Positions 2,808 through 27,562 of a DNA stretch of 32,000 nt are shown here, in pieces. The notes under the pieces were generated by a model, which had not been told where the DNA came from, searched no databases, and worked only from the letters and a program-made list of their open reading frames with translations. Both the position numbers and the translations under genes were made by a program. Every line of letters starts with the position of its first letter. The first letter of the stretch is position 1. Source of the stretch: Betaproteobacteria bacterium (GTDB taxonomy: Bacteria; Pseudomonadota; Gammaproteobacteria; Burkholderiales; Burkholderiaceae_C); assembly GCA_037134215.1 (NCBI GenBank), contig JBAXMQ010000009.1:19197-51196 (forward strand), written 5' to 3'.

Positions 2808-2827
2808 AGCGCTCATCGCTGTCCGGC

Positions 2828-3613
2828 GTGGAGTACACCTTTTGTGCTGACACCGACCTTGGTCGGGTGCGGGACAACAATGAAGATGCTGTCGCGGTGG
2901 ACCCTTCAGCCGGCCTGGCGCTGTTGGCGGATGGCATGGGGGGCTACAAGGCGGGGGAGGTCGCCAGTGGCTTGGCGATCAGCGTTATCCAACCCGAGTT
3001 GGCGCAGTGGCTGACAGAAGCCGGCAAATCGGCCAGCATTGCGCGGCTCCGTCAGGCCATCTTCGACTGCGTGGTGCGCGCCAACGGCCTGATCCTGAAG
3101 TCATCCCTCACCCATGCGGCCCATGCCGGCATGGGCACGACCTTGGTCGTCGGTGTGTTTCATGGTGAACACCTGGTGCTCGGCCATCTGGGGGATTCCC
3201 GCTGTTACCGGCTGCGCGGCGGGCATCTCGACCTGATCACGCGGGACCACTCGGTGCTGCAGGAGCGCATTGACGCTGGTTTGATCACGCCAGCGCAGGC
3301 GTTTGGCTCTGCCGACAGGCATCTGGTCACCCGGGCTTTGGGTGTCGCGCCGGAGGCCAAGCTGGAACTGCATGATTTTCCGGTCGAGCCCGGGGACCTT
3401 TACCTGATGTGCTCCGATGGTTTGTCCGACATGGTGCGGGACGACATGATCCAGAAGGTGCTGTGCCAGTCCCTGCCGCTGGAGCAAACAGCCCGGGCGC
3501 TGATTGCCCTGGCCAACGAGCAGGGAGGTCGGGACAACATCGCGGTGGTGCTGGTCCAGGCTTCCGATCGGGGCGCACGGCGCAATTTTCTGTCCAGATT
3601 GCTTGGAAGATAG
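2828..3613 (+). CDS. PP2C-family Ser/Thr protein phosphatase
   Basis: PP2C motifs are present: DLGRVRDNNED, LLADGMGG, GMGTT, GDSR and CSDGL...GGRDNI. The start is placed at in-frame GTG 2828, 9 codons before the D-x-G-x-x-R-x-x-NED motif and 20 nt after the TerC stop. The longer ORF from 2642 would overlap terC. The start is uncertain. Confidence 0.85.
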   Translation: MEYTFCADTDLGRVRDNNEDAVAVDPSAGLALLADGMGGYKAGEVASGLAISVIQPELAQWLTEAGKSASIARLRQAIFDCVVRANGLILKSSLTHAAHAGMGTTLVVGVFHGEHLVLGHLGDSRCYRLRGGHLDLITRDHSVLQERIDAGLITPAQAFGSADRHLVTRALGVAPEAKLELHDFPVEPGDLYLMCSDGLSDMVRDDMIQKVLCQSLPLEQTARALIALANEQGGRDNIAVVLVQASDRGARRNFLSRLLGR

Positions 3614-3645: not shown

Positions 3646-4263
3646 ATGGGGATGCCTCGGCTGATCGTGTCGATTGACGGCGACGTTGTCAAAGAGATCG
3701 TCCTGTCCAAGGCGCGCACCACCGTGGGCCGCAGACCTTATAACGACATCGTGCTCGACAACCTGGCGATCAGTGGCGAGCACGCCGTGCTGGTTATGGA
3801 CGAGCAGGCGCTGCGCATTGAGGACCTGGGCAGCACCAATGGCACGCGCGTCAATGGCGAGACTGTGCGCAACCATGTATTGCGGGATGGCGACGTCATC
3901 GCCATTGGCAAATACAGCCTGGCCCTCGCTCACCCGTTGCTGCCTGCTGCGGCCGTTTTGGCCGATGAGGCCGATGAAACCGACAGCGCGCAGCAGACAC
4001 CAAGGCCAGCGTCCATCAAGGTCATTTCAGGTCGGTCGACTGGCCGTGAACTGGCCCTGACCAAGGCCGTGACAACCCTGGGCAAGCCCAGCGTCGCGGT
4101 CGCGGCCATCACGCGCCGTCCCAACGGCTTTGTGCTGCACCACATGGAGGGCAGCGACCGGGCTGTCGTCAACGGTGTGCCGGTCGGGCCGGACGCCGTG
4201 CCCCTGGAACACGGCGACAGCATCCTGCTGGCGGGTACCACCATGCAGTTTTTGCAGCCATGA
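3646..4263 (+). CDS. FHA-domain protein with a canonical N-terminal FHA and a degenerate C-terminal FHA-like domain
   Basis: FHA1 has TTVGRRPYNDIVLDNLAISGEHAVL...GSTNGTRVNG, with the Gly-Arg, Ser-x-x-His and Asn signature residues. The second half (TTLGKPSVAVAAI...GSDRAVVNG) has the FHA fold pattern but lacks the Arg and Ser/His pThr-contact residues. The alternative start ATG 3652 has better spacing to GGGTGGA (3637-3643). Confidence 0.85.
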   Translation: MGMPRLIVSIDGDVVKEIVLSKARTTVGRRPYNDIVLDNLAISGEHAVLVMDEQALRIEDLGSTNGTRVNGETVRNHVLRDGDVIAIGKYSLALAHPLLPAAAVLADEADETDSAQQTPRPASIKVISGRSTGRELALTKAVTTLGKPSVAVAAITRRPNGFVLHHMEGSDRAVVNGVPVGPDAVPLEHGDSILLAGTTMQFLQP

Positions 4264-4330
4264 GCGGTCCTGCCTGCCAGCTTGTGCCACTGCTGGCGCG
4301 CCATCAATCCGCATCCTGAGCCATAGCCCC

Positions 4331-6580
4331 ATGCAATACCTCAAAAATCACCGCCTGCGGATCGCCGTCACCCTGATTCCCTTGGTGTTGGCCTTGATGC
4401 ACGCAGGGGGTCTGTTCAAGCTGGACCTGATCGCGCGCCTCGAAGCCATTGCCTACGATGCGCGCTTGGTCGCCACCATGCCTAAGACGCTCGATGACCG
4501 GATTGTGATCGTTGACCTCGATGAGAAAAGCCTGGCCGAGGTCGGGCGCTGGCCCTGGAGCCGCAACCGCCTGGCGGACTTGATGGACGAGCTGTTCGAC
4601 CGGCAAAAAATTGCTGTTGCCGGCTTCGACGTGGTGTTTTCCGAGCCCGATGACAGCTCCGGCCTGAGCCGCCTGAAGTCGCTGGCGCAAAACGAACTGC
4701 GCGGACAGGCGGGCTATGTCGACCGGTTGGCCCAGTTACAAGAGTCTTTGGATTACGACGGCCTGTTTGCCCGTGCCATTGCAAATCGAAAGGTGGCCCT
4801 CGCGTATTACCTGTCGAGTGACCAGAGGGGACGAACCTCGGGGACGCTACCGTCGCCCGTATTCGACGAACAGGCGCTACAGGGGCGTCAGACCCCAAAG
4901 GCCGCTTGGGACGGCTATGGATCCAACATCGATCGGTTGGCGAAGGCGGCGCCGATGGCAGGCTTCTTCAACACGCTGGAGGAGGCCGATGGCGTGGTGC
5001 GCTTTGTGCCCCTGGTGGCTGAATTTAAGGGTGGCTATTACGAATCACTGTCTTTGGTGATTTTTCGCCTGTTTGTCGGGCTGCCAGTGGTTACACCGGG
5101 TTTCCCCTCAGGCTCCCGGGCTGATGACGTCTACCAGGGGCTGGAGAGCATTCAGTTACGTCAAGGCAAACAAACCATGCGTATCCCGGTGGATGACCGC
5201 TTGGCCATGCTCGTGCCCTACCGGGGCAAGGGCGGGCCAGACGGCGGCTCGTTCCGCTATGTCTCGGCGGTTGACTTGCTGGCGAAGCGATTGCCGGAAG
5301 GCAGCCTGGCCGGCAAGATTGTGCTGGTCGGCACGACGGCCCCTGGCTTGCTGGACCTGCGCTCCGCGCCGGTGGGCAACTCTTACCCCGGCGTTGAGGC
5401 ACACGCCAACCTTATCAGCAGCCTCCTGGACGGTAAAACCCTGGTCCGGCCGGACTATGCGGTCGGTTTCGAGGTGATGCTGCTGCTGCTGGTGGGCATT
5501 CTGCTGGCTTTGGCGCTACCGGCACTCTCGGCGCTGATGGCCGTGTTGTTGAGCGGCGCCACGGTTGCCTTGATGGTCGGCCTGAACCTCTGGCTGTTCG
5601 CGTCCGCCGGCTTGGTCTTGCCTTTGGCGCTGATGGTCATCATGACCGTGATTGCTTTTGTGTTGAACATGAGCTACGGCTATCTGGTGGAAAGCCGGTC
5701 CAAGCGGGACTTGGCCCAGTTGTTTGGCAGCTATGTTCCGCCCGAGTTGGTCAAGGAAATGGTCAAAGACCCCGAAAGCTACAGCATGAAAGCCAGCAGC
5801 CGGGAGCTGACGGTGATGTTTTGCGACATGCGCGGCTTCACCAGCCTGTCGGAGACCCTGGAGCCGCTGGCGTTGCAGGCCATGCTCAATGGCGTGTTCA
5901 GCCAACTCACCAGTGTGATCCGGCGCAACATGGGCACGATCGACAAGTACATGGGTGACTGCGTGATGGCCTTCTGGGGCGCCCCGGTAGAAACCGCGCA
6001 ACACGCGCAGCTGGCGGTCAAGACCGCGCTGGAAATGACGGTGGCACTGCGCCGTATCAACGCGAACCACCGGGCCAAGGGCATCGCGGAGATCAGTCTG
6101 GGCGTGGGCCTCAATACAGGCAGCATGTGCGTGGGCGACATGGGCTCGGACATCCGGCGCAGCTACACCGTGATCGGCGACGCGGTCAACCTGGGCTCTC
6201 GCCTGGAGGGCCTGTCCAAAGTCTATGGCGTGGACACCGTGGTGAGCGAGTCCACCCGGGCACTTGCGCCGGATTTTGTCTGGCAGGAGCTCGACCGCGT
6301 GCGAGTCAAGGGCAAGGCGCAAGCTGTTGCCATCTTCTGGCCAGCAGCCGTTTTGGCAGACAACACGCCGGCCCTGAGCCGCGAGATGGCCCTATGGGCT
6401 GACTTCCTGCAAGCCTATCGGCGTCAGTGCTGGAACGACTGCGACCCGATGCTGGCAGAATTGCAACTTATCCAGCCGACCAAGGGCCTTTACAAGCTTT
6501 ACGAAGGACGCTTGGCCGCGCGTCGGGCCTTGCCCCAAGACCCGGACTGGGACGGTGCCACCAATTTCGAAACCAAATGA
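4331..6580 (+). CDS. CHASE2 sensor-domain membrane protein fused to a class III adenylate cyclase catalytic domain
   Basis: ATG 4331 is the first Met after the FHA gene stop. An N-terminal TM helix is followed by a roughly 330-aa extracytoplasmic region (CHASE2-like: VIVDLDEKSL..GRWPWSR, VGFDVVFSEPD). Three TM helices span about nt 5460-5680. The cyclase domain has VMFCDMRGFT, DKYMGDCVMAFWGAP and YTVIGDAVNLGSRLE. Confidence 0.9.
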   Translation: MQYLKNHRLRIAVTLIPLVLALMHAGGLFKLDLIARLEAIAYDARLVATMPKTLDDRIVIVDLDEKSLAEVGRWPWSRNRLADLMDELFDRQKIAVAGFDVVFSEPDDSSGLSRLKSLAQNELRGQAGYVDRLAQLQESLDYDGLFARAIANRKVALAYYLSSDQRGRTSGTLPSPVFDEQALQGRQTPKAAWDGYGSNIDRLAKAAPMAGFFNTLEEADGVVRFVPLVAEFKGGYYESLSLVIFRLFVGLPVVTPGFPSGSRADDVYQGLESIQLRQGKQTMRIPVDDRLAMLVPYRGKGGPDGGSFRYVSAVDLLAKRLPEGSLAGKIVLVGTTAPGLLDLRSAPVGNSYPGVEAHANLISSLLDGKTLVRPDYAVGFEVMLLLLVGILLALALPALSALMAVLLSGATVALMVGLNLWLFASAGLVLPLALMVIMTVIAFVLNMSYGYLVESRSKRDLAQLFGSYVPPELVKEMVKDPESYSMKASSRELTVMFCDMRGFTSLSETLEPLALQAMLNGVFSQLTSVIRRNMGTIDKYMGDCVMAFWGAPVETAQHAQLAVKTALEMTVALRRINANHRAKGIAEISLGVGLNTGSMCVGDMGSDIRRSYTVIGDAVNLGSRLEGLSKVYGVDTVVSESTRALAPDFVWQELDRVRVKGKAQAVAIFWPAAVLADNTPALSREMALWADFLQAYRRQCWNDCDPMLAELQLIQPTKGLYKLYEGRLAARRALPQDPDWDGATNFETK

Positions 6581-6593
6581 GGAGTAAGCACCC

Positions 6594-7385
6594 ATGAAAG
6601 TCCGCGTTCTTGGCTGCTCGGGAGCGATTGCGAAGAACTGTCGAACCACGTCATTCTTGTTGGATCGCGATGTCCTGATTGACGCGGGCACCGGCGTCGG
6701 CGATCTGACCCTGGAGGAAATGAGGGACATTGACCACGTCGTGTTGACCCACTCTCACCTTGACCATGTGGCGGCCTTGCCACTGATGGTCGATTCTGTG
6801 GGAGCCTTACGGACGCGACCCTTGCAGGTGCATGGGTTGCCGGAGACGGTCGATGCGCTCAAAGCCCATATTTTCAACGACGTGATCTGGCCCGACTTCA
6901 GCCGCATCCCCACGCCGGATCAACCCTTTATCCAGTTCAGCGTGATGGCCGTGGGTGACGTGCTGCAGTTCGGCGACAAAGCGGTGGAGGTGTTGCCGGC
7001 GGTCCACTCTGTGCCTGCGGTAGGCATTGCCGCCACTGGCGGCAATGGCTATTGGGTGTTCAGCGGTGACACCGGACCCAACCCTGCTTTCTGGGCCAGA
7101 GTCAACCAGCTGCCAGTGAGTGCGCTGGTGATCGAAACCGCCTTTAGCAACCGCGAGCACAGGCTGGCCCAGCTCAGCTTGCATCTTTCGCCAGCCATGC
7201 TGGCGGAAGAAATTGCCAACATCGCTGGCGACCGCCGCTTTCCGATCTACATCACCCACACCAAGCCAGCCGCGACCGAACTGATCATGCAAGAAATCGA
7301 AGTCTTCAATCAGCAAGACGGTGGCGATCAGGCGGGCTTGTACGACATTCGCTGGCTGCGGGCGGGGAAGGAGTTCAATTTGTGA
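6594..7385 (+). CDS. Class II 3',5'-cyclic-nucleotide phosphodiesterase (metallo-beta-lactamase fold)
   Basis: GAGGAG at 6579-6584 lies 9 nt before ATG 6594. The N-terminus VRVLGCSG..., FLLD..VLIDAGTG and the class II PDE signature HSHLDHV (6750-6770) are present. The start is 13 nt after the cyclase stop. Confidence 0.8.
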   Translation: MKVRVLGCSGAIAKNCRTTSFLLDRDVLIDAGTGVGDLTLEEMRDIDHVVLTHSHLDHVAALPLMVDSVGALRTRPLQVHGLPETVDALKAHIFNDVIWPDFSRIPTPDQPFIQFSVMAVGDVLQFGDKAVEVLPAVHSVPAVGIAATGGNGYWVFSGDTGPNPAFWARVNQLPVSALVIETAFSNREHRLAQLSLHLSPAMLAEEIANIAGDRRFPIYITHTKPAATELIMQEIEVFNQQDGGDQAGLYDIRWLRAGKEFNL

Positions 7386-9790
7386 ACGAGCAGCCCAAGG
7401 CGGGCGCCATGACGCCCGCCTTAGCCGAAGTTCAGGCATCGCCGATGCCGCCACCTGGCCACGCCACTGAGGCCGAGTTTTACAAAAGGCTGCAAGCCGT
7501 CACGGCGCGGATCCATGACACCGACAACCTCGACCAACTGATGCTGGACGTCAGTGAGGACATCTGCCAACTCTTCAATGCCGAGCGCCTCACGCTGTAC
7601 GCGGTCAGCCGTGATCAGACGTCCATCGTCTCCAAAATCAAGACCGGCTTGACCAGCAGCCAGGATTTGAGGTTGCCCATATCGCCACAAAGCATCGCAG
7701 GCTATGTGGCGCTGAGCAAGCAACTGCTGAATTTGCGCGATGTGTATGACGAGCAGGCCCTGCGCCGCATCCACCCGGACTTGACCTTCCTCAAAGCCGT
7801 CGACAAGGGGTCGGGCTTTCTGACACGCCAGTTGCTGGTCGCCCCGATCACCGACGGCAATAGCTTGCTGGGTGTGCTACAGATCATCAACAACCGGGAC
7901 AACCAAGTCTTCGGTGATCTGGAGGTGGACGGTGCCACCCAGCTGTGCCGGACCCTGGCCACTGCCATCCGCCAGCGTGTCGAAAGGAGCACACTGGGGC
8001 TGCGCCGCGGTACCACCAAATATGACGGTCTGGTGCAACAGGGCGTTCTGACGGCTGATGCGTTGGAACAGTGCTGGCGGCAGTCCCGTAGCGAGGGGCA
8101 AGCGGTGGAGCAGGTGATCATGTCCCGTCACAAGGTTCTACCGGCCCAGATCGGGCGCTCTCTGGCCTGGTATTTCGATGTGGCCTATGAACCGTTCAAG
8201 GCAAGCCGTTCGCGGATCGACCAGCTGCACGGCATGCTCAAGCTGGACTTCGTTGACAAGCAGGGCTGGATTCCTCTGGAAGACTCGGCTGAGGGCTTGG
8301 TCGTCATGTGTATTGATCCAGAGACGGTGCGAAGCTCGCGCATCTTGGCCCAGGTTTTTCCGCGGATCAGCCGTTTTGTGTACCGGGTGACGACCCAGGC
8401 TGAATTCCAGGCCACGCTGGCCCAAATCTTCGGCGCCGTGACAGGCGGCCTGTCGATTGATGAGATGCTGGCCGACATGGATGGCGCACTGATCGATGAC
8501 GCCGGCCTTGACGATGCCTTGGCCTCCGCTGCCGCCGACAACGAACTCGTGAAGTTTGTCAACAAGGTCATCATCGACGCTTACCAGCAAAAGGCCTCGG
8601 ATATCCATATCGAGCCCATGCCAGGCAAGCTCAAGACCGGCATTCGTTTTCGCATTGACGGCATCCTGACGCACTACATTGAGGTGCCAGCCCATTACTG
8701 GCAGGCCATGGTCACGCGCTTGAAAATCATGTGCGACCTGGACATTTCCGAGCGCCGACGGCCCCAGGACGGAAAAATCAAATTCAAAAAGTATGGCCCG
8801 CTCGACATTGAGTTACGGGTTGCCACCATTCCCTCGGCCGGCGGCTTGGAAGACGTGGTGATGCGTATCCTGCCAGCAGGCGCGCCCATACCCATCGACC
8901 AGTTGGGCCTGACAGCCCACAATTTAGAGCGCGTTCTCAGGACGATCGCCAAACCTTACGGCCTGTTCTATGTCTGCGGACCAACCGGCTCGGGCAAGAC
9001 GACCACCCTGCATTCCATACTGAGCCACTTGAACCGCCCAGACACCAAGATCTGGACCGTGGAGGACCCGGTCGAAATCACGCAAAAGGGCTTGCGTCAG
9101 GTTCAGATCAACAAAAAGGCCGGGATCGACTTTGCCATGGTGATGCGTGCCTTTTTGCGCGCTGACCCGGACATCATCATGGTGGGCGAGTCGCGTGACA
9201 AGGAAACCGTGACCATGGGCGTTGAGGCCTCGCTGACCGGTCATCTGGTGTTTTCCACCTTGCACACCAACTCGGCGCCGGAGTCGGTCACCCGTCTGCT
9301 CGAAATGGGGATGGACCCCTTTAATTTTGCCGATGCCCTGCTCGGTATTCTGGCGCAGCGACTGGCGCGCAGGCTGTGCAGTTGCAAATCGTCCTACGTT
9401 CCGGATGACGGCGAGCTGCGCTTGTTTGCCCTTGAATATGCGGAGGAACTCAGCCACTCGGCGGACTGGCTGGCCGACCCTGAAAAAGAAGTCGCCCGGC
9501 TGATTGAAGGCTGGCGGACAAGCCATGGCGAGCAGGGGCAAATCCGCCTGTACCGAGCAGTCGGCTGCGACAAATGTGCCCAGACCGGCTACAAAGGGCG
9601 GGTCGGACTGCATGAGCTCTTGATTGCAGACGCGGAGATCAAGAAGCTGATCCAGCTGCGCGCCCGGGTCGCAGACCTGTTTGCTGCCGCCGTACAGTCG
9701 GGCATGCGCACACTGAAAATGGATGGCATGGAAAAAATCATGATGGGATTGACCGACCTCAAGATGGTCAGAGCGGTGTGCATCCGTTGA
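7382..9790 (+). CDS. PilB/GspE-family secretion ATPase with an N-terminal GAF domain (GAF - T2SSE_N - ATPase core)
   Basis: GTG 7382 has AAGGAG (7369-7374) 7 nt upstream and overlaps the PDE stop (GTGA). A GAF-like region spans about nt 7480-7980. The ATPase core has Walker A GPTGSGKTTT, Walker B DPDIIMVGESRD, His box TGHLVFSTLHTN and a CSC...CDKC cysteine cluster. Confidence 0.9.
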   Translation: MNEQPKAGAMTPALAEVQASPMPPPGHATEAEFYKRLQAVTARIHDTDNLDQLMLDVSEDICQLFNAERLTLYAVSRDQTSIVSKIKTGLTSSQDLRLPISPQSIAGYVALSKQLLNLRDVYDEQALRRIHPDLTFLKAVDKGSGFLTRQLLVAPITDGNSLLGVLQIINNRDNQVFGDLEVDGATQLCRTLATAIRQRVERSTLGLRRGTTKYDGLVQQGVLTADALEQCWRQSRSEGQAVEQVIMSRHKVLPAQIGRSLAWYFDVAYEPFKASRSRIDQLHGMLKLDFVDKQGWIPLEDSAEGLVVMCIDPETVRSSRILAQVFPRISRFVYRVTTQAEFQATLAQIFGAVTGGLSIDEMLADMDGALIDDAGLDDALASAAADNELVKFVNKVIIDAYQQKASDIHIEPMPGKLKTGIRFRIDGILTHYIEVPAHYWQAMVTRLKIMCDLDISERRRPQDGKIKFKKYGPLDIELRVATIPSAGGLEDVVMRILPAGAPIPIDQLGLTAHNLERVLRTIAKPYGLFYVCGPTGSGKTTTLHSILSHLNRPDTKIWTVEDPVEITQKGLRQVQINKKAGIDFAMVMRAFLRADPDIIMVGESRDKETVTMGVEASLTGHLVFSTLHTNSAPESVTRLLEMGMDPFNFADALLGILAQRLARRLCSCKSSYVPDDGELRLFALEYAEELSHSADWLADPEKEVARLIEGWRTSHGEQGQIRLYRAVGCDKCAQTGYKGRVGLHELLIADAEIKKLIQLRARVADLFAAAVQSGMRTLKMDGMEKIMMGLTDLKMVRAVCIR

Positions 9791-9944: not shown

Positions 9945-10358
9945 ATGGAACGCAAATCACAACAGGGTTTCACCCTGATCGAGTTGATGATCGTGGTGGC
10001 CATCGTCGGCATTCTTGCGGCCGTGGCGCTGCCGGCCTATCAGGACTACACCAAGAGAGCCAAATTCACCGAGGTGGTGTCAGTCGGTACCAGCTACCAG
10101 ACCGCGGTGTCTGCCTGCGTCCAGGATCTGGGTACGCTGACCGGTTGTTCGTTGGGCACCAATGGCATTCCCGCCTCGCAGGCCACCGTGCACGTGACCT
10201 CGGTCGGTGTCACTGACGGGGTGATCACGGTCACGCCCACTGCCACCACCGATGCCGCCGCCACCCTGGTGCTGACACCAACCCTCGGTGTGGGCGCTTT
10301 AACCTGGGCCAAAACCGGCAGCGGCTGCCTGACCTCCAACCCGGTGCTCTGCCGCTAA
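9945..10358 (+). CDS. pilA: Type IVa major pilin (prepilin with an 8-residue leader)
   Basis: AAGGAG lies upstream of ATG 9945. The sequence MERKSQQG|[27 protein letters not shown] has the class III signal peptide, with Gly-1, Phe+1 and Glu+5. Two Cys pairs are present (C..C in [13 protein letters not shown] and the C-terminal [10 protein letters not shown]). Confidence 0.92.
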
Positions 10359-10376: not shown

Positions 10377-11960
10377 ATGCGAGCTCCGGCCACCCCTGCG
10401 TTGGGCGACTTGGCACCAACCCGGTGGCCGCTTGCCTGGGGCCAGTCGGTCGTGATGCTGGCTTTGCTGTTGCCCTGGGTCAATCCTTTTGCACCTTTCC
10501 CGTCGTCGGCGGTGGTGCAGAGCCTGCTCAGTGTTGCGGGTCTGGCCCTGTTGCTTTTGCTGCCACTGAAGCGTGACGGGGTCGCAGTTTTGGCGCAAAC
10601 CAACGCGTCAGTCTGGTTGTGCGCGGCGCTGCTGAGTTGCGTGTTGGCGCCGATCCAGTATTTCGGCGCTTCAGCCGCCTGGTTTCCCTGGGTCAACGGC
10701 ACGGCGGCGGGGGAGGCGTTTGCCAATCTGCGCCAGCGCAACCAATTTGCCACGCTCACCAGCATCGGCTTGCTCGCGCTGATCTGGGTGCAGGCCTGCG
10801 GTCAACCCCAAGCGCGCTTTCAGACGCAAGGCCGGTTGCCAGCGCTGGCTGTCTCGCCCGCGCCGGCCTGGGCTGCCGCCGCGCTGCTGGCGGTCGGCAA
10901 TGCGCTGTCATCCTCCCGCACCGGCTTGTTGCAGCTTTTGATGATGTCGGCGCTGCTGCTGGGCTGCCGCTCGTGGCGCAACGCTCAGGCGCTCCGGCTG
11001 CTGCTGGTCGCCGTCATGGCCTATCTGGCCGCACTGCTGGTGATGCCCTGGCTGGCTGGCTTCGCCTTCGCTGAATCTGGCATGCTGTCCAGACTGCGAG
11101 AGATCGAAAGCTCGTGCCAGGCCCGTTCCCAGCTGTGGCGTAATGTGATTTACCTGATTGCCCAGCGACCCTGGGCGGGTTGGGGTTGGGGCGAGCTCGA
11201 CTACGCGCACTTCATCACGCTCTACCCCGGGCCGCGCTTCTGCGACATTCTGGACAACGCCCACAACCTGCCCTTGCATCTGGCGGTGGAATTGGGTTTA
11301 CCGGCTGCCCTGGGTATTTGTGGGCTGGCCCTGTACCTGATGGTGCGCGCCCAACCCTGGCGCGAAGCCGATCCCACCCGGCAACTGGCCTGGGGCGTGC
11401 TGGCCATCATTGGCGTACACAGCCTCCTGGAGTACCCACTCTGGTACGGACCCTTCCAGCTTGCTTTTGGGGTGTCTTTGACCTTGTTGTGGCTGACGGG
11501 CTCACGCTTCCCGGCCCCGCCCGCCGATGTCCTGGCCACGGTCTACAGCGGGGCCCGTGGCTGGCTGGCACGTGCCATGGTTGCCATTGGCCTGGTGCTG
11601 GCCACCGCCGATGTCGCTCTGGACTATGTTCGGGTTCACCAGTTTTACCTGCCGCTGGCAGATCGCGCCAGCCTGTACCGCAATGACACCTTGGCAACCA
11701 CCTCCCGCTCGGGCTGGTTCGCCCACTGGGTGGACTTTGCCGAGCTGACCACCACGGTGCCCGATGCGTACAACGCCGCGCGCCTGCAAGCCATGGCCGA
11801 GCGACTGTTGCATGTGTCGCCTGAGCCGCGCGTGATTGAAAAGCTCATTGACACCGCCCTCCTGCAGCAGCAGGCAGAGCGCGCACAGTTTTACCTGGTG
11901 CGCTACCAAGCGGCGTTCCCGAGGGAGCATGCGGACTGGCTCAGGCGCCATCCGGGGTAA
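10377..11960 (+). CDS. PglL/O-antigen-ligase (Wzy_C) family polytopic membrane protein; likely pilin/protein O-oligosaccharyltransferase
   Basis: The gene starts 18 nt downstream of the pilin stop. It encodes a multi-TM protein with a Wzy_C-type loop (SSSRTGLLQL, WAGWGWGE, DNAHNLPLHLAVELG) and a soluble C-terminal tail like that of PglL-type enzymes. The start is uncertain; ATG 10377 is taken. Confidence 0.75.
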   Translation: MRAPATPALGDLAPTRWPLAWGQSVVMLALLLPWVNPFAPFPSSAVVQSLLSVAGLALLLLLPLKRDGVAVLAQTNASVWLCAALLSCVLAPIQYFGASAAWFPWVNGTAAGEAFANLRQRNQFATLTSIGLLALIWVQACGQPQARFQTQGRLPALAVSPAPAWAAAALLAVGNALSSSRTGLLQLLMMSALLLGCRSWRNAQALRLLLVAVMAYLAALLVMPWLAGFAFAESGMLSRLREIESSCQARSQLWRNVIYLIAQRPWAGWGWGELDYAHFITLYPGPRFCDILDNAHNLPLHLAVELGLPAALGICGLALYLMVRAQPWREADPTRQLAWGVLAIIGVHSLLEYPLWYGPFQLAFGVSLTLLWLTGSRFPAPPADVLATVYSGARGWLARAMVAIGLVLATADVALDYVRVHQFYLPLADRASLYRNDTLATTSRSGWFAHWVDFAELTTTVPDAYNAARLQAMAERLLHVSPEPRVIEKLIDTALLQQQAERAQFYLVRYQAAFPREHADWLRRHPG

Positions 11961-18400: not shown

Positions 18401-19537
18401 TTAGACAATGGCAAAATTTTCGGTGCCGGCACCCAAATTCTGGGATCTGGCGCGCTGGCTGTTGAGTTTGATTTGCAGACGCAGGTCGTTCACCGAGTCG
18501 GCATTGCGTAGCGCATCTTCGTAGGTGATGGATTCGGCTTCAAAGGCATCGAACAAGGCCTGGTCAAAGGTCTGCATGCCCATGTTGCGGCTCTTCTTCA
18601 TGACCTCCTTGATTTCTGCCACTTCGCCCTTGAACACCAGATCGGAAATCAGGGGTGAGTTCAGCAAAACCTCGACGATGGCCGCGCGACCCTTGCCGCT
18701 TTGTTTGGGGACCAGCCGTTGCGAGATGATGGCCTTGAGGTTCAAAGACAAATCCATCAGCAACTGGGCCCGTCGCTCCTCAGGGAAAAAATTGATGATG
18801 CGGTCCAGCGCCTGGTTGGCACTGTTGGCGTGCAGGGTGGCCAGGCACATGTGGCCGGTTTCGGCGAAAGCCACCGCATGTTCCATGGTTTCGCGGTCGC
18901 GGATCTCGCCCATCAGGATCACATCGGGCGCCTGACGCAGCGTGTTCTTCAGCGCGGCATCCCAGTTGTCAGTGTCGAGGCCGACCTCGCGCTGAGTCAC
19001 CATGCAGTTTTTGTGCGGGTGCACGAACTCGATCGGGTCCTCGATCGTGATGATGTGGCCGTAGGACTGCTCATTGCGCCAGTCCACCATGGCCGCGAGC
19101 GTGGTGGATTTGCCAGAGCCGGTGGCGCCGACCAGGATGCAAAGACCGCGCTTGGCAATCACCACGTCCTTGAGCACCTGGGGCACACCCAAGCCATCGA
19201 TGGTGGGCACCGTGGTGGGAATGGCTCGCAGGACCATCCCCGCCTGGTTCTGTTGGACAAAGGCATTGACCCGAAAGCGACCGATGCCCACCGGAGAAAT
19301 CGCGAAATTGCACTCCTTGGTGGTCTCGAATTCGGCCGCCTGCCGGTCGCTCATGACCGCGCGCACCAGAGCGCCGGTCTGGGTGCCGTTGAGCCCGTCG
19401 GCCGAGAGCTTGGTCATTTTCCCGTCCACCTTGATGGCGGGCGGAAAGCCGGCCGTGATGAACATGTCACTGCTCTTGCGGCTGAGCATCAACTCCAGCA
19501 ATTGCCGGACGAAGTCGTAGGCCTGTGTCGTTTCCAT
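18401..19537 (-). CDS. pilU: PilU-type twitching-motility ATPase (PilT paralogue)
   Basis: AAGGAG lies 5 nt upstream of the ATG. The 378-aa product has Walker A GATGSGKSTTLA, DVILMGEIRD and TGHMCLATLHAN. It lacks the PilT AIRNLIRE motif. Confidence 0.9.
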   Translation of the reverse strand: METTQAYDFVRQLLELMLSRKSSDMFITAGFPPAIKVDGKMTKLSADGLNGTQTGALVRAVMSDRQAAEFETTKECNFAISPVGIGRFRVNAFVQQNQAGMVLRAIPTTVPTIDGLGVPQVLKDVVIAKRGLCILVGATGSGKSTTLAAMVDWRNEQSYGHIITIEDPIEFVHPHKNCMVTQREVGLDTDNWDAALKNTLRQAPDVILMGEIRDRETMEHAVAFAETGHMCLATLHANSANQALDRIINFFPEERRAQLLMDLSLNLKAIISQRLVPKQSGKGRAAIVEVLLNSPLISDLVFKGEVAEIKEVMKKSRNMGMQTFDQALFDAFEAESITYEDALRNADSVNDLRLQIKLNSQRARSQNLGAGTENFAIV

Positions 19538-19558: not shown

Positions 19559-20188
19559 TCAGACTCGGTCACTGAGGCGGGCGCCCACCACCCGCAGGCG
19601 CAGAGACATCTTGCGCGCCAGCAGTGACATGAGTCCGGCAACCAGTTCGGAATCATTCGCCAGCATGCGATTCATGGCGTCGGCTGTCAGCACCGCCAGT
19701 TCGCACCGGCTGCGCGTGACACAGCTGGAGAACCGCACACCGCTGTCGAGCAGCGACATTTCACCCAGCATCTCGCCGGGCACCACCTCGGCCAGGCGCA
19801 GGCGTTCGCCCCACGATTGCGTGCGCTCCACGGCGACCCGGCCCGTCAACAACACCACCATGTAGTCGCCATGCTCATCCTGGCGGATGATTTCCTGATC
19901 GGGCGGTACAAGGGAAAAATTCAGGAAATCCTTCATGCGCCCGATGGTCCGCTGGTTGAGCTGACCCATGTGTTTGTCCATGCCCCACAAGGCCTGCAAC
20001 TGACCCATGCCCACGCCCGCATTCATCGGCTCAGCGCCGATGTCGATGGCCCGGGCTTCCCAGGGGACCGCACGCCGGTTATCGGCCGCGAGTGGGTCCA
20101 GCGCGGTGCCGAACAGCCGCTGAACCACGGGCTCTTCCTTGGCCTGAAGTCCGAGTTTTTCGCCGATCTGACGGAGGATCTCTTTCAT
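19559..20188 (-). CDS. Cyclic nucleotide-binding (CAP_ED) domain protein with an unassigned roughly 85-aa N-terminal region
   Basis: The 209-aa product shows the beta-roll pattern IIRQDEHGDYMVVLLTGRVAV...VPGEMLGEMSLLDSGVRFSSCV. The gene lies 25 nt after the pilT stop and 21 nt before the pilU start, with GGAG upstream of its ATG. Confidence 0.8.
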   Translation of the reverse strand: MKEILRQIGEKLGLQAKEEPVVQRLFGTALDPLAADNRRAVPWEARAIDIGAEPMNAGVGMGQLQALWGMDKHMGQLNQRTIGRMKDFLNFSLVPPDQEIIRQDEHGDYMVVLLTGRVAVERTQSWGERLRLAEVVPGEMLGEMSLLDSGVRFSSCVTRSRCELAVLTADAMNRMLANDSELVAGLMSLLARKMSLRLRVVGARLSDRV

Positions 20189-20213: not shown

Positions 20214-21257
20214 TCAGCCCGGGAAATTCTCGGGAATCTTGGCCTTGGTTCGGGCTTCGGCCGGGCTGATCACATTGCGTTTGACCAAATCGGTCAGGTT
20301 TTGGTCCAGCGTCTGCATGCCCACGCTGTTGCCGGTCTGGATGCTGGAGTACATCTGCGCCACCTTGGCCTCCCGGATCAGGTTGCGGATGGCGTTGGTG
20401 CCCAACATGATCTCGTGCGCCGCCACCCGGCCCTGACCGTCCTTGGTCTTGCACAGCGTCTGCGAGATCACCGCCTGCAGTGACTCGGACAGCATGGCAC
20501 GCACCATTTCCTTCTCTTCGGCAGGAAAGACGTCAATGATCCGGTCGATGGTCTTGGCGGCGCTCGAGGTGTGCAGTGTGCCAAACACCAGGTGGCCGGT
20601 TTCTGCGGCCGTCATGGCCAGCCGGATGGTCTCGAGGTCGCGCATCTCGCCCACCAGGATCGCGTCCGGGTCTTCGCGCAGCGCTGAGCGCAGGGCCGAG
20701 GCAAAGCTCAGGGTGTGCGGGCCGACCTCGCGCTGGTTGATCAGGCACTTTTTCGATTCGTGCACGAACTCGATCGGGTCTTCCACCGTCAGGATGTGGC
20801 CGTATTCGTTTTCGTTGAGGTAGTTCACCATGGCCGCCAGGGTGGTCGATTTGCCCGAGCCGGTCGGGCCGGTGACCAGCACCATGCCACGCGGCTTGAG
20901 CGCGAGTTCGGCAAAGATCTTGGGGGCGTTGAGCTGTTCCAGCGACAAGATCTTGCTCGGGATGGTGCGCAGCACCGCGCCGGCACCGCGTTGGTGGTTG
21001 AACGCATTGACCCGGAACCGGGCCAGCCCCGGAATCTCGAAGGAAAAGTCAATTTCCAGAAATTCCTCGTAGTGCTTGCGTTGCGAATCGTTCATGATGT
21101 CGTACACCATGGCGTGGACCTGCTTGTGGTCCAGCGCCTCGACATTGAGTCGGCGCACGTCGCCATGGACCCGGATCATGGGCGGCAGCCCGGACGACAG
21201 GTGCAGGTCGGAGGCCTTGTTCTTGACGCTGAAGTCCAGCAGCTGGGTGATGTCCAC
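20214..21257 (-). CDS. pilT: PilT twitching-motility retraction ATPase
   Basis: The 347-aa product has MDITQLL...ASDLHLSSG, Walker A GPTGSGKSTTLA, DAILVGEMRD, TGHLVFGTLHT and the PilT-specific AIRNLIRE motif. Confidence 0.95.
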   Translation of the reverse strand: MDITQLLDFSVKNKASDLHLSSGLPPMIRVHGDVRRLNVEALDHKQVHAMVYDIMNDSQRKHYEEFLEIDFSFEIPGLARFRVNAFNHQRGAGAVLRTIPSKILSLEQLNAPKIFAELALKPRGMVLVTGPTGSGKSTTLAAMVNYLNENEYGHILTVEDPIEFVHESKKCLINQREVGPHTLSFASALRSALREDPDAILVGEMRDLETIRLAMTAAETGHLVFGTLHTSSAAKTIDRIIDVFPAEEKEMVRAMLSESLQAVISQTLCKTKDGQGRVAAHEIMLGTNAIRNLIREAKVAQMYSSIQTGNSVGMQTLDQNLTDLVKRNVISPAEARTKAKIPENFPG

Positions 21258-24007: not shown

Positions 24008-25317
24008 AAACCATCAACGCCTTTGACCCGGCCACGCTGAACGCGCTTCCCGAGCGGCGGCAGGCCCTGATCCGCCGGCGCGAGGCGCTGCTTGGGCCGG
24101 CCTACCGCCTGTTCTACCAGGACCCGGTGGAGTTGGTGCGCGGCCAGGGCGTATGGGTGTGGGACGCCGAGGGCAAACGTTACCTGGACGCCTACAACAA
24201 CGTGGTGTCCCTGGGGCACTGCCACCCGCACGTGGTGCGGGCCCTGCAAGAGCAGGCCGCCACGCTCAACACGCACACTCGTTACCTCAACGAGGCGCTG
24301 CTGGACTATGCCGAGCGCCTGCTGGCCACGCACCACCCCAGCCTGGACCGTCTCATGTTCACCTGCACCGGCAGCGAGGCCAATGACCTGGCGCTGCGGC
24401 TGGCGCAGTTCCACACCGGTGGCAGCGGTGTCATCGTGACGGATTGGGCTTACCACGGTGTCACGCAGAGCACGGCCGCCTGCTCGCCCTCCCTGGGGGC
24501 ATCTGACGCCGGTCCACTGAGGGTGTACACCGTGCCGGCCCCCAGCGGTGATGGCGACGGTGTGGGCGTGGCCTTTGCCGCTGGCATTGAGCAGGCCATC
24601 CTGCGGATGCAGGCCGACGGCGTGCGCCCGGCCGCGTTGCTGGTCGATACCCTGTTCACCAGCGACGGCGTGTACGGTGCGCCAGCGGGTTTTCTGCAAG
24701 CGGCGGTGGCCTGTGCCCGCGCCGCTGGCCTGCTGGTGATTGCCGACGAGGTGCAACCCGGCTTCGGCCGCACCGGCAGCCACATGTGGGGCTACCAGCG
24801 CCATGGCCTTGCGCCCGATCTGGTCACCATGGGCAAACCCATGGGCAACGGTCACCCCCTGGCCGGCCTGTGTGCCCGGCAGGACCTGCTGGACGCGTTT
24901 GGTCGCGAGACGCGCTACTTCAACACCTTTGGCGGCAACACGGTGAGTGCGGCGGTGGGCATGGCGGTGCTGGACGTGCTCGAAGGCGAGCTGTTGCTGG
25001 AGAACGCCCAGACCCAGGGCGCTTACTTCAAGCAGAGCCTGCAGGCGCTGGCCCGGCGCCACGCCTGGATGGGTGAGGTGCGCCAGTTCGGGCTGTTCCT
25101 GGGTGTGGCGCTGGTGCACGACGGCGACCCGGCCCGTCCGGCGGCTGAGGCCACCACCCGGGTGGTGAACGGCATGAAAGCCCGTGGCGTGCTCATCAGC
25201 GCCTGCAGCCGAACCGCCAATGTGCTCAAAATCCGTCCGCCGCTGGTGCTGGAGCGCGGCCATGTGGACATGTTTATGGAGGCTCTGGAGGACTGTCTGG
25301 GGGGCTTGACACGCTGA
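24004..25317 (+). CDS. Class III PLP-dependent aminotransferase-fold enzyme (possible phospho-lyase partner of the upstream kinase)
   Basis: The start overlaps the kinase stop (ATGA). GVWVWDAEGKRYLD, TGSEANDLALR, IADEVQPGFGRTG and the PLP-lysine context VTMGKPMGNGHP are present. Confidence 0.9.
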   Translation: MKTINAFDPATLNALPERRQALIRRREALLGPAYRLFYQDPVELVRGQGVWVWDAEGKRYLDAYNNVVSLGHCHPHVVRALQEQAATLNTHTRYLNEALLDYAERLLATHHPSLDRLMFTCTGSEANDLALRLAQFHTGGSGVIVTDWAYHGVTQSTAACSPSLGASDAGPLRVYTVPAPSGDGDGVGVAFAAGIEQAILRMQADGVRPAALLVDTLFTSDGVYGAPAGFLQAAVACARAAGLLVIADEVQPGFGRTGSHMWGYQRHGLAPDLVTMGKPMGNGHPLAGLCARQDLLDAFGRETRYFNTFGGNTVSAAVGMAVLDVLEGELLLENAQTQGAYFKQSLQALARRHAWMGEVRQFGLFLGVALVHDGDPARPAAEATTRVVNGMKARGVLISACSRTANVLKIRPPLVLERGHVDMFMEALEDCLGGLTR

Positions 25318-27562
25318 GCCTCGCCAGCAGCGCCTGGAAGTCTTTGCGTTTGATGGGTTTGATCAGGTAATCGGTCATGCCTGAATCGATGGCGTTCTGG
25401 CGGTCCAGCTCGGACGCAAAGGCGCTGCACCCGACGATCGGCAGCGCGCCCCAGGGCTGTCCGGGCTCGCGGATGGTCTGGGTGGCCGCCAGCCCGTCTA
25501 GCACCGGCATCTGGATGTCCATCAAGACCAGGTCGAACGCCTCTTCCCGCAGCGCTTGCACCGCCTGCTGGCCGTCTTCCACCACGCGGACCGTGTGGCC
25601 CAGGTCTGCCAGCATCAAGCGCACCACCAGGGCGCTGGTCGGGGTGTCTTCGGCCACCAATACCCGCAAGGCCGACCTGGATCGGTTTTGCAGCAGCCGG
25701 CTGGCGTGCTGGGCCAAGGCCTCCAGCGCGCTCAGCTGCTGCGGACTGAGTTCGCGCGGTTGGGTGTCGATCACACACAGCGTGCCCAGCGCCTGACCCG
25801 TGGCATCGGTCAGGGGCACGCCGGCATAAAAACGGAAGTTGGACTCACCAGTCACCAGCGGGTTGGACGCGAAGCGCGGGTCGGTGGTGGCATCGGGCAC
25901 CACCATGGTGTGCGTCGGCGTCTGTATGGCGTGGGCACAAAAGGCCTGTTCCCGCGGCGTCTCGCCGGCAGCCAGACCAACCCTGGCCTTGAACCACTGT
26001 CGCTTGTCGTCCACCAGAGAAATCAGCGCGATCGGCGTGCCGCAGACGCGCGCGGCGCCGGCCACCAGCTCATCGTAGGCCGCCTCCGGGTCAGTATCCA
26101 TGATGGTCAGGTTGGCCAGCGCCTGCAGCCGGACCTGCTCCTGAGCCGGGTGCCATTGCACGGTCTGCAGCGGCACGCAAAAGGTGAAGGTGGCGCCCTC
26201 ACCTTCTGTGCTGTGCATGGTGAGCGTGCCACCCATCAGCAGGGCGTAGCGCTGGCAGATGGACAGCCCGAGGCCGGTTCCGCCGGAAAAACCCGACAAC
26301 TTGACGAAAGGCTCAAAAATCCGCTGCTGCATCGCTGCCGAGATGCCAGGGCCGGTGTCTGTGACGGCCAGGCACAGGCGTACCTGGTCTGGCCCCTCAA
26401 CCGAGGCGCTGACGTCCAGCGTCACGCTGCCGCTTGGGGTGAATTTGACCGCATTGCCCAGCAGGTTGAGCAATACCTGCTTGATCCGGCGCGCGTCGCC
26501 CCGCAGCCTGCGGGGCACATCTTCGGCCATGCGGTACGCCACTGTGAGCAGACGCGCCGCCGGTACGGACTCGATGATGCGGAACGCGGCGGCCACCAGC
26601 TCATACAGGTCAAACGCTTCTTCTTCGAGTCGCTCCTTGCCCGATTCGGCGCTGCTGAAGTCCAGGATCTGGTTAATGATGGCCAGCAGGTGCTCGGATG
26701 ATTCCTCGATGGTCCGGATTTTCTGGCGCAGCGCCTCGTCCAGCGGGCCGTTGGCAATCACGCTGGCCATGCCCATGATGCCGTTCATCGGCGTGCGCAA
26801 TTCATGACTCACCATCGAGATGAAGTTGCTTTTCGCCTTGTTGGCCTCTTCCGCCGCCATCCGCAGCGAGACGTTGGTGCGCGAGTCCTCCTCGGCCAGT
26901 TGGCGTGCGGCCGTCAGCGCCTGCTCGCGACGGACCAGTTCCTGCCGGAATTTTTCGAAGGACCGAGACAGTTCACCGATTTCGTCGTTGGTGAACGTGG
27001 TTTGCGGCGGGATGTTTGCGGGCGCATCGACATGGGTGAGATTTTTCCGCAGCGCCCGGATGGGCCGCGTGACGTACAGCCAGTGCAGCAGCAGGCTGAG
27101 TGCGACCATACCCACCCCGATGATCAGCACCGCAGCCTCAAAGTCGCGCGTGGCTTGGCGCACCGCGCCCGAACGCAAGCTGCCGTCAAAGTAAATCACC
27201 AAGGCGCCCAGGCGCTCCTTGGCGCCAGTGATGCGGACCGAGACCTTTTGCAGGCCATTCGGCGCCGATATGGCGTTGGTCGGGTAAATGCGCTGGCCCT
27301 GCGCGTCGTAGGCTTCAACCAATGCCCAGTCCGGCCGGTTGGCCCAGACCCGGCTGAGTGTGGCGGCCACCTCGGCATGTTGGCCGGTTTTCATGTCATT
27401 GCTCAGTGCCTCTGCCAGCACCGTGGCGCTGTTGCGCTCGGCATCGTCATCCCAATGCGACAACTCCTGGCTCAGGTGAGGGACCAGCCAGAAGGCGAAG
27501 CCCAGCGAAACCGCCAGGAAAAAAATCAATACCGGTCCGCTGGTCTTGAGAAAGATCTTCAT
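25274..27562 (-). CDS. Hybrid sensor histidine kinase: TM - periplasmic domain - TM - HAMP - HisKA - HATPase_c - GAF - REC
   Basis: The H-box SHELRTPMNGI, the N/G boxes (LLGNAVKFT, DTGPGI, GTGLGLSI), a GAF-like segment (ALISLVDDKRQWFKA...FYAGVPL...GTLCVID) and a receiver (LVAEDT...DLVLMDIQMP...KP) are all present. Confidence 0.9.
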   Translation of the reverse strand: MKIFLKTSGPVLIFFLAVSLGFAFWLVPHLSQELSHWDDDAERNSATVLAEALSNDMKTGQHAEVAATLSRVWANRPDWALVEAYDAQGQRIYPTNAISAPNGLQKVSVRITGAKERLGALVIYFDGSLRSGAVRQATRDFEAAVLIIGVGMVALSLLLHWLYVTRPIRALRKNLTHVDAPANIPPQTTFTNDEIGELSRSFEKFRQELVRREQALTAARQLAEEDSRTNVSLRMAAEEANKAKSNFISMVSHELRTPMNGIMGMASVIANGPLDEALRQKIRTIEESSEHLLAIINQILDFSSAESGKERLEEEAFDLYELVAAAFRIIESVPAARLLTVAYRMAEDVPRRLRGDARRIKQVLLNLLGNAVKFTPSGSVTLDVSASVEGPDQVRLCLAVTDTGPGISAAMQQRIFEPFVKLSGFSGGTGLGLSICQRYALLMGGTLTMHSTEGEGATFTFCVPLQTVQWHPAQEQVRLQALANLTIMDTDPEAAYDELVAGAARVCGTPIALISLVDDKRQWFKARVGLAAGETPREQAFCAHAIQTPTHTMVVPDATTDPRFASNPLVTGESNFRFYAGVPLTDATGQALGTLCVIDTQPRELSPQQLSALEALAQHASRLLQNRSRSALRVLVAEDTPTSALVVRLMLADLGHTVRVVEDGQQAVQALREEAFDLVLMDIQMPVLDGLAATQTIREPGQPWGALPIVGCSAFASELDRQNAIDSGMTDYLIKPIKRKDFQALLARLSVSSPPDSPPEPP

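Follow-up and report, generated by a model that had tools for sequence, protein, structure and literature searches.

The window examined here is a 32,000-nucleotide stretch of a Betaproteobacteria bacterium contig (JBAXMQ010000009.1). The gene of interest within it encodes a hexameric motor of the PilB/GspE type, in which the ATPase core is preceded by a GAF domain and an MshEN domain. The open reading frame (ORF) is intact and begins at a GTG codon, which overlaps the stop codon of the gene upstream within the tetranucleotide GTGA. The protein and its domains are laid out as follows.

7382..9790, + strand: GAF-MshEN-T2SSE ATPase, PilB/GspE-type hexameric motor, 802 residues (intact ORF, Pfam)
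7454..8002, + strand: GAF domain, residues about 25-207, with an N-terminal helix, an alpha/beta core and a long C-terminal helix (Pfam, PDB search, AlphaFold2, Foldseek)
8015..8173, + strand: MshEN N-subdomain, residues 212-264, a four-helix bundle with two degenerate 24-residue half-motifs (motif scoring, model, family alignment)
8195..8437, + strand: MshEN C-subdomain, residues 272-352 (Pfam PF05157, AlphaFold2 secondary structure)
8534..9769, + strand: ATPase core, residues 385-796, Walker A (nt 8978-9001) to Cys cluster (Pfam, motifs, Foldseek)

Three Pfam profiles, each scoring above its curated cut-off, place the domain borders: GAF (PF01590, residues 50-196, E=1.9e-10, 41.8 bits against a cut-off of 22.4), MshEN (PF05157, residues 272-352, profile positions 11-86 of 90, E=4.5e-6, 27.0 bits against 23.1) and T2SSE (PF00437, residues 385-796, E=4e-113). 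The full-length AlphaFold2 model was built on 22 sequences and has a mean predicted local distance difference test score (pLDDT) of 79.6. In this model residues 1-25 are disordered, the GAF fold is flanked by long helices (N-terminal, 25-46; C-terminal, 179-207), and a four-helix bundle (215-265) is followed by the MshEN C-subdomain (280-354), which a flexible and acidic linker (352-384) joins to the ATPase. The initial annotation of this DNA had proposed a GAF-like N-terminal domain, a T2SSE_N-like domain and a complete ATPase core, with profile searches as the check on their borders; the Pfam matches and the modeled fold agree with this architecture throughout. The strings from which the GAF pattern had been recognized lie at residues 68-75 (ERLTLYAV), 105-110 (IAGYVA), 150-156 (QLLVAPI) and 162-170 (LLGVLQIIN).

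The ATPase core is likewise as complete as had been claimed, with Walker A GPTGSGKT (533), the Asp box VEDPVE (560), Walker B DPDIIMVGESRD (595) and the His box TGHLVFSTLHT (619). A zinc-type Cys cluster, C666-x-C668 ... C729-x-x-C732 (nt 9377-9577), has all four Cys invariant in the family; its first pair is CxC and about 60 residues separate the pairs, compared with the usual CxxC ... CxxC and a separation of about 30. In Foldseek comparisons, Thermus PilF came out nearest to the ATPase part (43% identity, template modeling (TM) score 0.84), and the core is 40-43% identical to those of Thermus PilF, Geobacter PilB and Vibrio EpsE.

By sequence and by predicted fold, the GAF domain belongs to the cyclic-mononucleotide-binding class. 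When the N-terminal 393 residues were used to search the PDB, the best sequence match was the GAF-B domain of Anabaena CyaB2, which binds cyclic AMP (cAMP; E=1.3e-19). It was followed by the cyclic GMP (cGMP)-binding GAF-B domain of PDE2A (E=4e-11), the GAF domain of the HD-GYP protein PmGH (E=5.5e-7) and the cAMP-binding GAF-B domain of PDE10A (E=2e-5). CyaB2, PDE2A, PDE10A and PmGH gave the only matches better than 1e-4, and PDE5 and PDE6 ranked after them. A separate AlphaFold2 model of the GAF domain (pLDDT 88.7, predicted TM score 0.85) matched solved GAF domains in Foldseek with TM-scores of 0.6-0.78. The list was led by PmGH, PDE10A (cAMP), PDE2A (cGMP) and CyaB2 (cAMP); PDE6, PDE5 and Leptospira Lcd1 with bound cAMP came next. 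Most of the top 13 matches are bound to or regulated by a cyclic nucleotide monophosphate (cNMP), the exceptions being PmGH (ranks 1 and 3) and the GAF domain of PtsP (rank 7). The initial annotation had proposed a comparison of the GAF pocket with those of CyaB2 and PDE2A GAF-B; both domains match in sequence (E=1e-19 and 4e-11) and in fold.

The candidate pocket consists of T71, I86, S104-G107, D141, S144, T148 and Q167. T71 is aligned to T293 and I86 to I308 of CyaB2 GAF-B, two residues that contact cAMP or cGMP as judged by mutagenesis (PMC4411481). The segment VDKGSGFLTRQLL is aligned to IDQQNGYRTCSLL of CyaB2 and VDDSTGFRTRNIL of PDE2A. Within the aligned segment, D141, S144 and T148 correspond to PDE2A D485, T488 and T492, which we take to be ligand-contact residues. 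In an alignment of relatives that are 26-64% identical, S104, D141 and T148 are invariant and R69, T71 and Y73 nearly so, and the pocket set as a whole is invariant across 68 Comamonadaceae loci. The invariant columns indicate that the domain is under selection at the positions where cNMP-binding GAF domains hold their ligand. The reading that we favor, and that we consider about evenly poised between right and wrong, is that the protein is an accessory type IV pilus extension ATPase, a PilB paralogue, most likely made responsive to cAMP by its GAF-MshEN head.

The MshEN domain raises the question of a different messenger, cyclic di-GMP (c-di-GMP). The receptor motif for c-di-GMP consists of two 24-residue motifs and a 5-residue spacer, and a relaxed form of it has also been given (Wang et al. 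2016, PMC5013675). We scored the motif by regular expression, both in the strict form, two copies of RLGxx(L/V/I)(L/V/I)xxG(L/V/I)(L/V/I)xxxxLxxxLxxQ, and in the relaxed form, [RKPN]hGxxhhxx[GAS]hhxxxxhxxxhxx[QNKRYWST]; as a positive control, the same expression detects the motif in Thermus PilF. Half-motif 1, TKYDGLVQQGVLTADALEQCWRQS (residues 212-235), fails all three RLG positions and retains the hydrophobic skeleton and Gly10. Half-motif 2, AVEQVIMSRHKVLPAQIGRSLAWY (residues 241-264), fails positions 1, 3, 10 and 11 even under the relaxed form. The spacer RSEGQ joins the two, so that the layout matches the published two-motif arrangement exactly. The initial annotation had picked out the first of these helices, at about nt 8011-8085, as one that keeps the hydrophobic spacing and lacks the motif. 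The helix is there, at nt 8015-8086, and its RLG positions and hydrophobic spacing are as described; W232 and S235, which had also been counted as departures, fail the strict motif and pass the relaxed one (Wang et al. 2016).

This degeneracy is a property of the whole family. None of 270 family proteins, down to 26% identity, matches the relaxed c-di-GMP motif; relatives down to that same identity have x-[KR]-[YFW]-[DE] in half 1 where RLG would stand, and x-[VLI]-E at the corresponding place of half 2. Residues 212-215 (TKYD, nt 8015-8026) read [TS]-[KR]-[YF]-[DE] in all Comamonadaceae orthologues. When residues 201-406 were used to search the PDB by sequence, no MshEN structure was found, the sole match being Thermus PilF at E=1.6. 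The canonical motif is absent, then, as had been claimed, and to call binding "lost" overstates the case in a family that is without the motif throughout. Degenerate MshEN domains are already known from XpsE, Xanthomonas PilB and Pseudomonas aeruginosa PilB, none of which binds c-di-GMP, and the absence of the motif is for this reason unremarkable in itself. It is barely credible, in our estimation, that the domain still binds c-di-GMP in a non-canonical way. Such binding could be accommodated by the preserved four-helix bundle, the 5-residue spacer and most of the hydrophobic positions, and the x-K-[YF]-D that stands in place of RLG is itself conserved; however, both halves have other residues in place of Arg1, Leu2 and Gly3, and half 2 in place of Gly10 as well. 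In vivo, MshE-dependent function is impaired when G11 or L10 is substituted, and comparable substitutions are reported to have cost XpsE its c-di-GMP binding (PMC5013675).

Four genes lie upstream of the ATPase gene on the same strand.

2825..3613, + strand: PP2C-type Ser/Thr phosphatase, likely start about 2825 (Pfam PP2C_2)
3646..4263, + strand: FHA-domain protein, phospho-threonine reader (Pfam FHA, E=3e-25)
4331..6580, + strand: membrane-bound CHASE2 class III cyclase, predicted adenylyl cyclase (Pfam CHASE2, Guanylate_cyc)
6594..7385, + strand: class-II cyclic-nucleotide phosphodiesterase (PDE), metallo-beta-lactamase fold (Pfam PDEase_II, E=9e-14)

No Ser/Thr kinase gene is present in the operon of the window. 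The window has a GC content of 63.5% and carries many long spurious ORFs on the opposite strand. The starts of the longest ORFs at 2642, 4130 and 9831 appear to be too far upstream, the likely ones being about 2825 for the PP2C gene, 4331 for the cyclase and 9945 for the prepilin described below. The PP2C start was inferred from the relative L007; that of the cyclase corresponds to Met68 of the longest ORF (4130-6580), as judged from a 749-residue orthologue in L007.

The closest solved domains to the cyclase include that of P. aeruginosa CyaB (3R5G; E=2e-32), and its residues were read by alignment to this structure and to Spirulina CyaC (1WC0). The metal-binding Asp residues and the transition-state Asn and Arg are all present (FCDMRGFT, KYMGD, SYTVIGD, VNLGSRLE). 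The specificity pair is that of P. aeruginosa CyaB, with Lys (in GTIDKYMGD) and Thr (in SYTVIGD) at the positions that hold Glu and Gly in the guanylyl cyclase Cya2; the cyclase is predicted on this basis to make cAMP. The PDE scores 51.8 bits against the PDEase_II cut-off of 23.7, carries the HxHLDH signature as THSHLDHV, and has yeast PDE1 (4OJV) as its best PDB match, with HxHLDH and GLPxTxDxLxxHxFNDxIWPD common to both proteins. The PDE stop codon and the ATPase start share 4 nt, an overlap that is conserved in Rhodoferax.

That the GAF domain binds cGMP or another nucleotide instead of cAMP seems to us improbable. Class-II PDEs can hydrolyze both cAMP and cGMP, as yeast PDE1 does, and the cGMP binders PDE2A, PDE5 and PDE6 are structurally as close to the GAF domain as the cAMP binders are. 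Isolated CyaB2 GAF-B binds both nucleotides (PMC4411481). On the other hand, the specificity pair of the operon cyclase is the adenylyl Lys/Thr, where guanylyl cyclases such as Cya2 have Glu/Gly or Glu/Cys, and the best sequence match of the GAF domain is to a cAMP-binding domain, CyaB2 GAF-B. The pocket points the same way: Thr88 stands at the position of the guanine-reading residue Asp439 of PDE2A, and Gln167 matches the Gln of CyaB2 and not PDE2A Glu512.

Genes with a connection to pili lie downstream of the ATPase gene and, farther along, on the opposite strand.

9945..10358, + strand: type IVa prepilin, MERKSQQG|FTLIELM... (Pfam N_methyl, Pilin)
10377..11960, + strand: PglL/Wzy_C-type O-oligosaccharyltransferase (Pfam PglL_A, Wzy_C, Wzy_C_2)
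18401-19537, - strand: pilU
19559-20188, - strand: gene for a 209-residue protein with a C-terminal cNMP-binding domain, between pilT and pilU
20214-21257, - strand: pilT

The PglL/Wzy_C-type gene is likely to encode a pilin glycosylase, and its position after the prepilin gene suggests a glycosylated pilin. The same order of prepilin and PglL occurs in three related loci (L004, L006 and L007), and a pilin gene lies within 7 kb downstream of the ATPase gene in 26 of the 44 loci that could be evaluated. Several relatives (L004, L006) have two PglL-type genes in tandem. No gsp genes are present in the window, where the neighbors of the ATPase gene are the pilin and PglL-type genes. At the pilT locus, all 18 metagenome loci in which both flanks are present keep the order pilT, cNMP-binding gene, pilU, and no break in it was found among the metagenome loci with flanking DNA. 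The intervening protein is 43-100% identical across loci (43-58% when two contigs identical to the window are excluded), and PilT is 87-100% identical across the same loci. To judge by its sequence, this protein is a second cyclic-nucleotide receptor linked to the pilus motors. Elsewhere in the window, a hybrid histidine kinase (25274-27562, - strand) has a GAF domain inserted between its HATPase and receiver domains (HisKA-HATPase-GAF-REC).

The fusion of GAF, MshEN and ATPase domains is widespread. Close homologues (72-89% identity) all have GAF and T2SSE matches and nearly all have an MshEN match; they go by generic names such as "GspE/PulE family protein" and "putative GAF sensor protein". 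An exhaustive search with residues 1-384 gave 175 clusters (50% identity) at E<1e-30, some of which have the GAF domain in two or three copies. When one genome per species was scanned with a 5-sequence alignment (A2) as the query, the GAF-ATPase fusion was found in at least 592 carrier species. The best 80 of these all belong to the Comamonadaceae (Rhodoferax, Polaromonas, Caenimonas, Curvibacter and Acidovorax), and a profile search extends the range to Ramlibacter, Rubrivivax, Hylemonella, Rhodocyclaceae and Candidatus Dadabacteria. In one relative (P0184, residues 464-823) the GAF-MshEN cassette occurs within an 1106-residue protein, with HEAT repeats before it and a TIR domain in place of the ATPase at the end; this cassette is 34% identical over 368 residues and keeps the pocket residues. 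A relative of a different kind (P0125) starts with an Mrr-type nuclease domain, continues with four GAF repeats and gave no MshEN match. The cassette in the former and the repeats in the latter make the sensor head look portable. The Ramlibacter tataouinensis member, Rta_37350, was listed as a PilB paralogue in the 2011 genome annotation, and for Ramlibacter three PilB paralogues have been reported alongside a single pilus machinery, which suggests an accessory status for the GAF-ATPase. In the searchable literature we found no functional study of a GAF-PilB or GAF-GspE protein, only the Ramlibacter annotation table.

We took a census of the upstream genes by tblastn at 61 species-level loci bounded by sucD or terC, all from Comamonadaceae. 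An FHA gene is found upstream in 61 of the 61 loci, a PP2C gene in 60, a CHASE2 Ser/Thr kinase gene in 38, a cyclase gene in 28 and a PDE gene in 26. Cyclase and PDE occur together in 24 loci, at least one of them lies directly upstream in 30, and 31 have neither. The fullest order (kinase, PP2C, FHA, cyclase, PDE, then ATPase) is found in 23 species, and the window has the version without the kinase. In Rhodoferax ferrireducens T118 (L001/L002, 9213-12421) the PDE is kept, still overlapping the ATPase start, in an operon that lacks the cyclase; the reverse, a cyclase without the PDE, is seen in four species-level loci (L025, L027, L043 and L058). The cNMP genes are thus gained and lost independently of each other. 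We also considered whether the GAF pocket changes with the presence of cyclase or PDE, and rejected this, as the pocket residues are identical in both groups. The initial annotation had taken the operon context to point to cAMP. For the window this stands, given the Lys/Thr cyclase and the class-II PDE; as a statement about the family it is weakened by the presence of either gene in only 30 of the 61 loci.

In the cAMP-responsive mechanism that we infer, which extends to the ligand, the direction of regulation, the coupling and the pilus as output, an extracytoplasmic cue would lead the membrane CHASE2 cyclase to make cAMP, and the class-II PDE, translationally coupled to the ATPase, would remove it. 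Binding of cAMP in the GAF pocket would reposition the tethered GAF-MshEN head on the hexameric motor, or dimerize it above the motor. With the head changed in this way, the motor would assemble, hydrolyze ATP or dock to the pilus platform differently, and polymerization of the adjacent, putatively glycosylated pilin would change in turn. The FHA and PP2C proteins, with the CHASE2 Ser/Thr kinase in many relatives, would provide a second input on the same motor.

Several observations weigh against this proposal. The GAF/MshEN hinge (201-209) has low model confidence and varies in length among relatives, one of which (P0128) has a Pro-rich insert of about 23 residues there, and no rigid signaling helix between GAF and MshEN is obvious; these properties argue for a tethered regulatory head and not for a rigid signaling helix. 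The NKFDE motif known from classical cNMP-binding GAF domains is partial here (N171, R172, F177 and E181, in NNRDNQVFGDLEV), and the full N-K...F-x3-D-E is present in some relatives, such as P0219 with NKKSGARFTRKDE. The 31 loci without cyclase and PDE keep the same GAF residues, which implies that an operon cyclase is not required for GAF sensing. Two distant members of the family are encoded by orphan genes, which have neither cNMP nor pilus genes as neighbors. The best NCBIfam match is PilB (TIGR02538) at 460 bits, below the equivalog cut-off of 675.65, and the second is GspE (TIGR02533) at 438 bits, below its cut-off of 630.25. These scores place the protein in a separate subfamily of PilB/GspE-type ATPases, so that its assignment to a pilus machine is only a probable one. 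Finally, phospho-signaling is at least as likely a regulatory input as cAMP: the near-universal FHA and PP2C genes make phospho-threonine signaling a second, and possibly the primary, input.

Taken further, this last point becomes an alternative explanation, in which the main input is Ser/Thr phosphorylation and the FHA protein, the phosphatase and, in relatives, the CHASE2 kinase control the ATPase in the manner of PpkA/PppA/Fha1. The GAF domain would then be a dimerization or scaffold module or bind some other metabolite, and the signals from cyclase and PDE would go to other receptors, for example the cNMP protein between pilT and pilU. We regard this as possible and lean against it. The census favors it, with FHA in 61 and PP2C in 60 of the loci against cyclase or PDE in 30, as does the conservation of a separate cNMP receptor at pilT/pilU, and GAF domains bind many kinds of ligand (PMC4411481). 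The [TS]-[KR]-[YF]-[DE] at residues 212-215 resembles, in a reading of our own that is speculation, the pTxxD motif bound by FHA domains. However, sequence and fold both place the GAF domain specifically in the cNMP class, conservation in the family is highest at its pocket positions, translational coupling links the PDE to the ATPase, and the window operon has no kinase. The two inputs are in any case not mutually exclusive.

A pilus is the probable output because the ATPase gene has prepilin and PglL-type neighbors, PilB gives the top NCBIfam score, and pilT and pilU lie in the window. We think it very unlikely that the ATPase is instead not a pilus extension motor, powering a type II secretion system or another pilus-like fiber or acting in signaling without a motor function. 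The PilB and GspE scores are admittedly nearly equal and both below their cut-offs, the distant relatives are orphan genes, and no pilC, pilD or pilM gene adjoins the ATPase gene. Nevertheless, a type IVa prepilin and a pilin-type O-oligosaccharyltransferase follow the gene here and in many relatives, pilT and pilU are nearby, and the Ramlibacter annotators named the orthologue a PilB paralogue.

Beyond an accessory, cAMP-responsive extension ATPase, a broader proposal can be made, tentatively and with more doubt than conviction: cAMP may control type IV pili post-translationally at the motors themselves. The operon enzymes would make and degrade the cAMP that is sensed by the GAF domain of the extension ATPase. 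At the retraction ATPases, the same messenger would be sensed by the dedicated cNMP-binding protein encoded between pilT and pilU. The FHA, PP2C and Ser/Thr kinase module would converge on the extension motor, possibly through TKYD, so that the GAF-MshEN head would be a portable two-input sensor cassette, also found fused to TIR. Control of pili by cAMP would then not run only through a CRP/Vfr-type transcription factor.

Second-messenger-gated PilB/GspE proteins, cNMP-binding GAF domains and degenerate MshEN domains are already known, and the fusion itself is visible in databases: R. tataouinensis Rta_37350 and the "putative GAF sensor protein" of R. ferrireducens T118 are orthologues with the same architecture, known as annotations only. 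The known second-messenger control of pilus and secretion ATPases is by c-di-GMP, acting on MshEN or via FimX and PilZ, and the known control of pili by cAMP is through transcription factors. If the GAF domain does bind cAMP, a pilus extension ATPase would for the first time be seen to respond directly to a cyclic mononucleotide, and the system would be a compact one, with cyclase, PDE, receptor-motor and pilin all encoded in a single operon. The family, generically annotated, is common among Comamonadaceae of freshwater and soil, and one biochemical result would re-annotate many genes. The constant partnership with FHA and PP2C also suggests phospho-threonine control of a pilus motor, which is little explored.

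The ATPase shares its MshEN-T2SSE backbone, with a sensing N-terminal head on a hexameric motor, with Vibrio cholerae MshE, P. aeruginosa PA14_29490, Thermus PilF and Myxococcus PilB. Like the c-di-GMP-gated MshE/PilF type, it keeps the four-helix bundle, the two 24-residue repeats and the 5-residue spacer; unlike that type, it is missing the RLG, Gly and Gln contacts to c-di-GMP in its repeats, has an extra GAF domain before MshEN, and has a cyclic mononucleotide as its predicted messenger. In XpsE (a GspE) and the PilB proteins of Xanthomonas and P. aeruginosa the MshEN fold is likewise kept and the binding motif gone, but there any c-di-GMP input is indirect, via FimX and PilZ, or lacking, whereas the ATPase described here carries its own sensor domain. 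The logic of an N-terminal GAF domain controlling a C-terminal catalytic domain is that of CyaB1/CyaB2, PDE2A, PDE10A, PDE5, PDE6 and Lcd1. The output differs, being a secretion-type hexameric ATPase and not a cyclase, PDE or diguanylate cyclase, and in contrast to the CyaB2 and PDE proteins the GAF domain is single and not tandem, the hinge is flexible and NKFDE is only partly kept. The PpkA/PppA/Fha1 system, which acts on type VI secretion by threonine phosphorylation, resembles the family in having a membrane Ser/Thr kinase with an extracytoplasmic sensor, a PP2C and an FHA protein beside a secretion ATPase; here, however, the machine would be a pilus, and the window has no kinase gene. P. 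aeruginosa CyaB is likewise a membrane class IIIb adenylyl cyclase with the same Lys/Thr pair and ties to type IV pilus biology. In P. aeruginosa, cAMP acts on pili via the transcription factor Vfr and the sensor of CyaB is MASE2. Unlike the CyaB/Vfr/Chp system, the one described here has CHASE2 as the cyclase sensor and places its predicted receptor within the motor protein itself.

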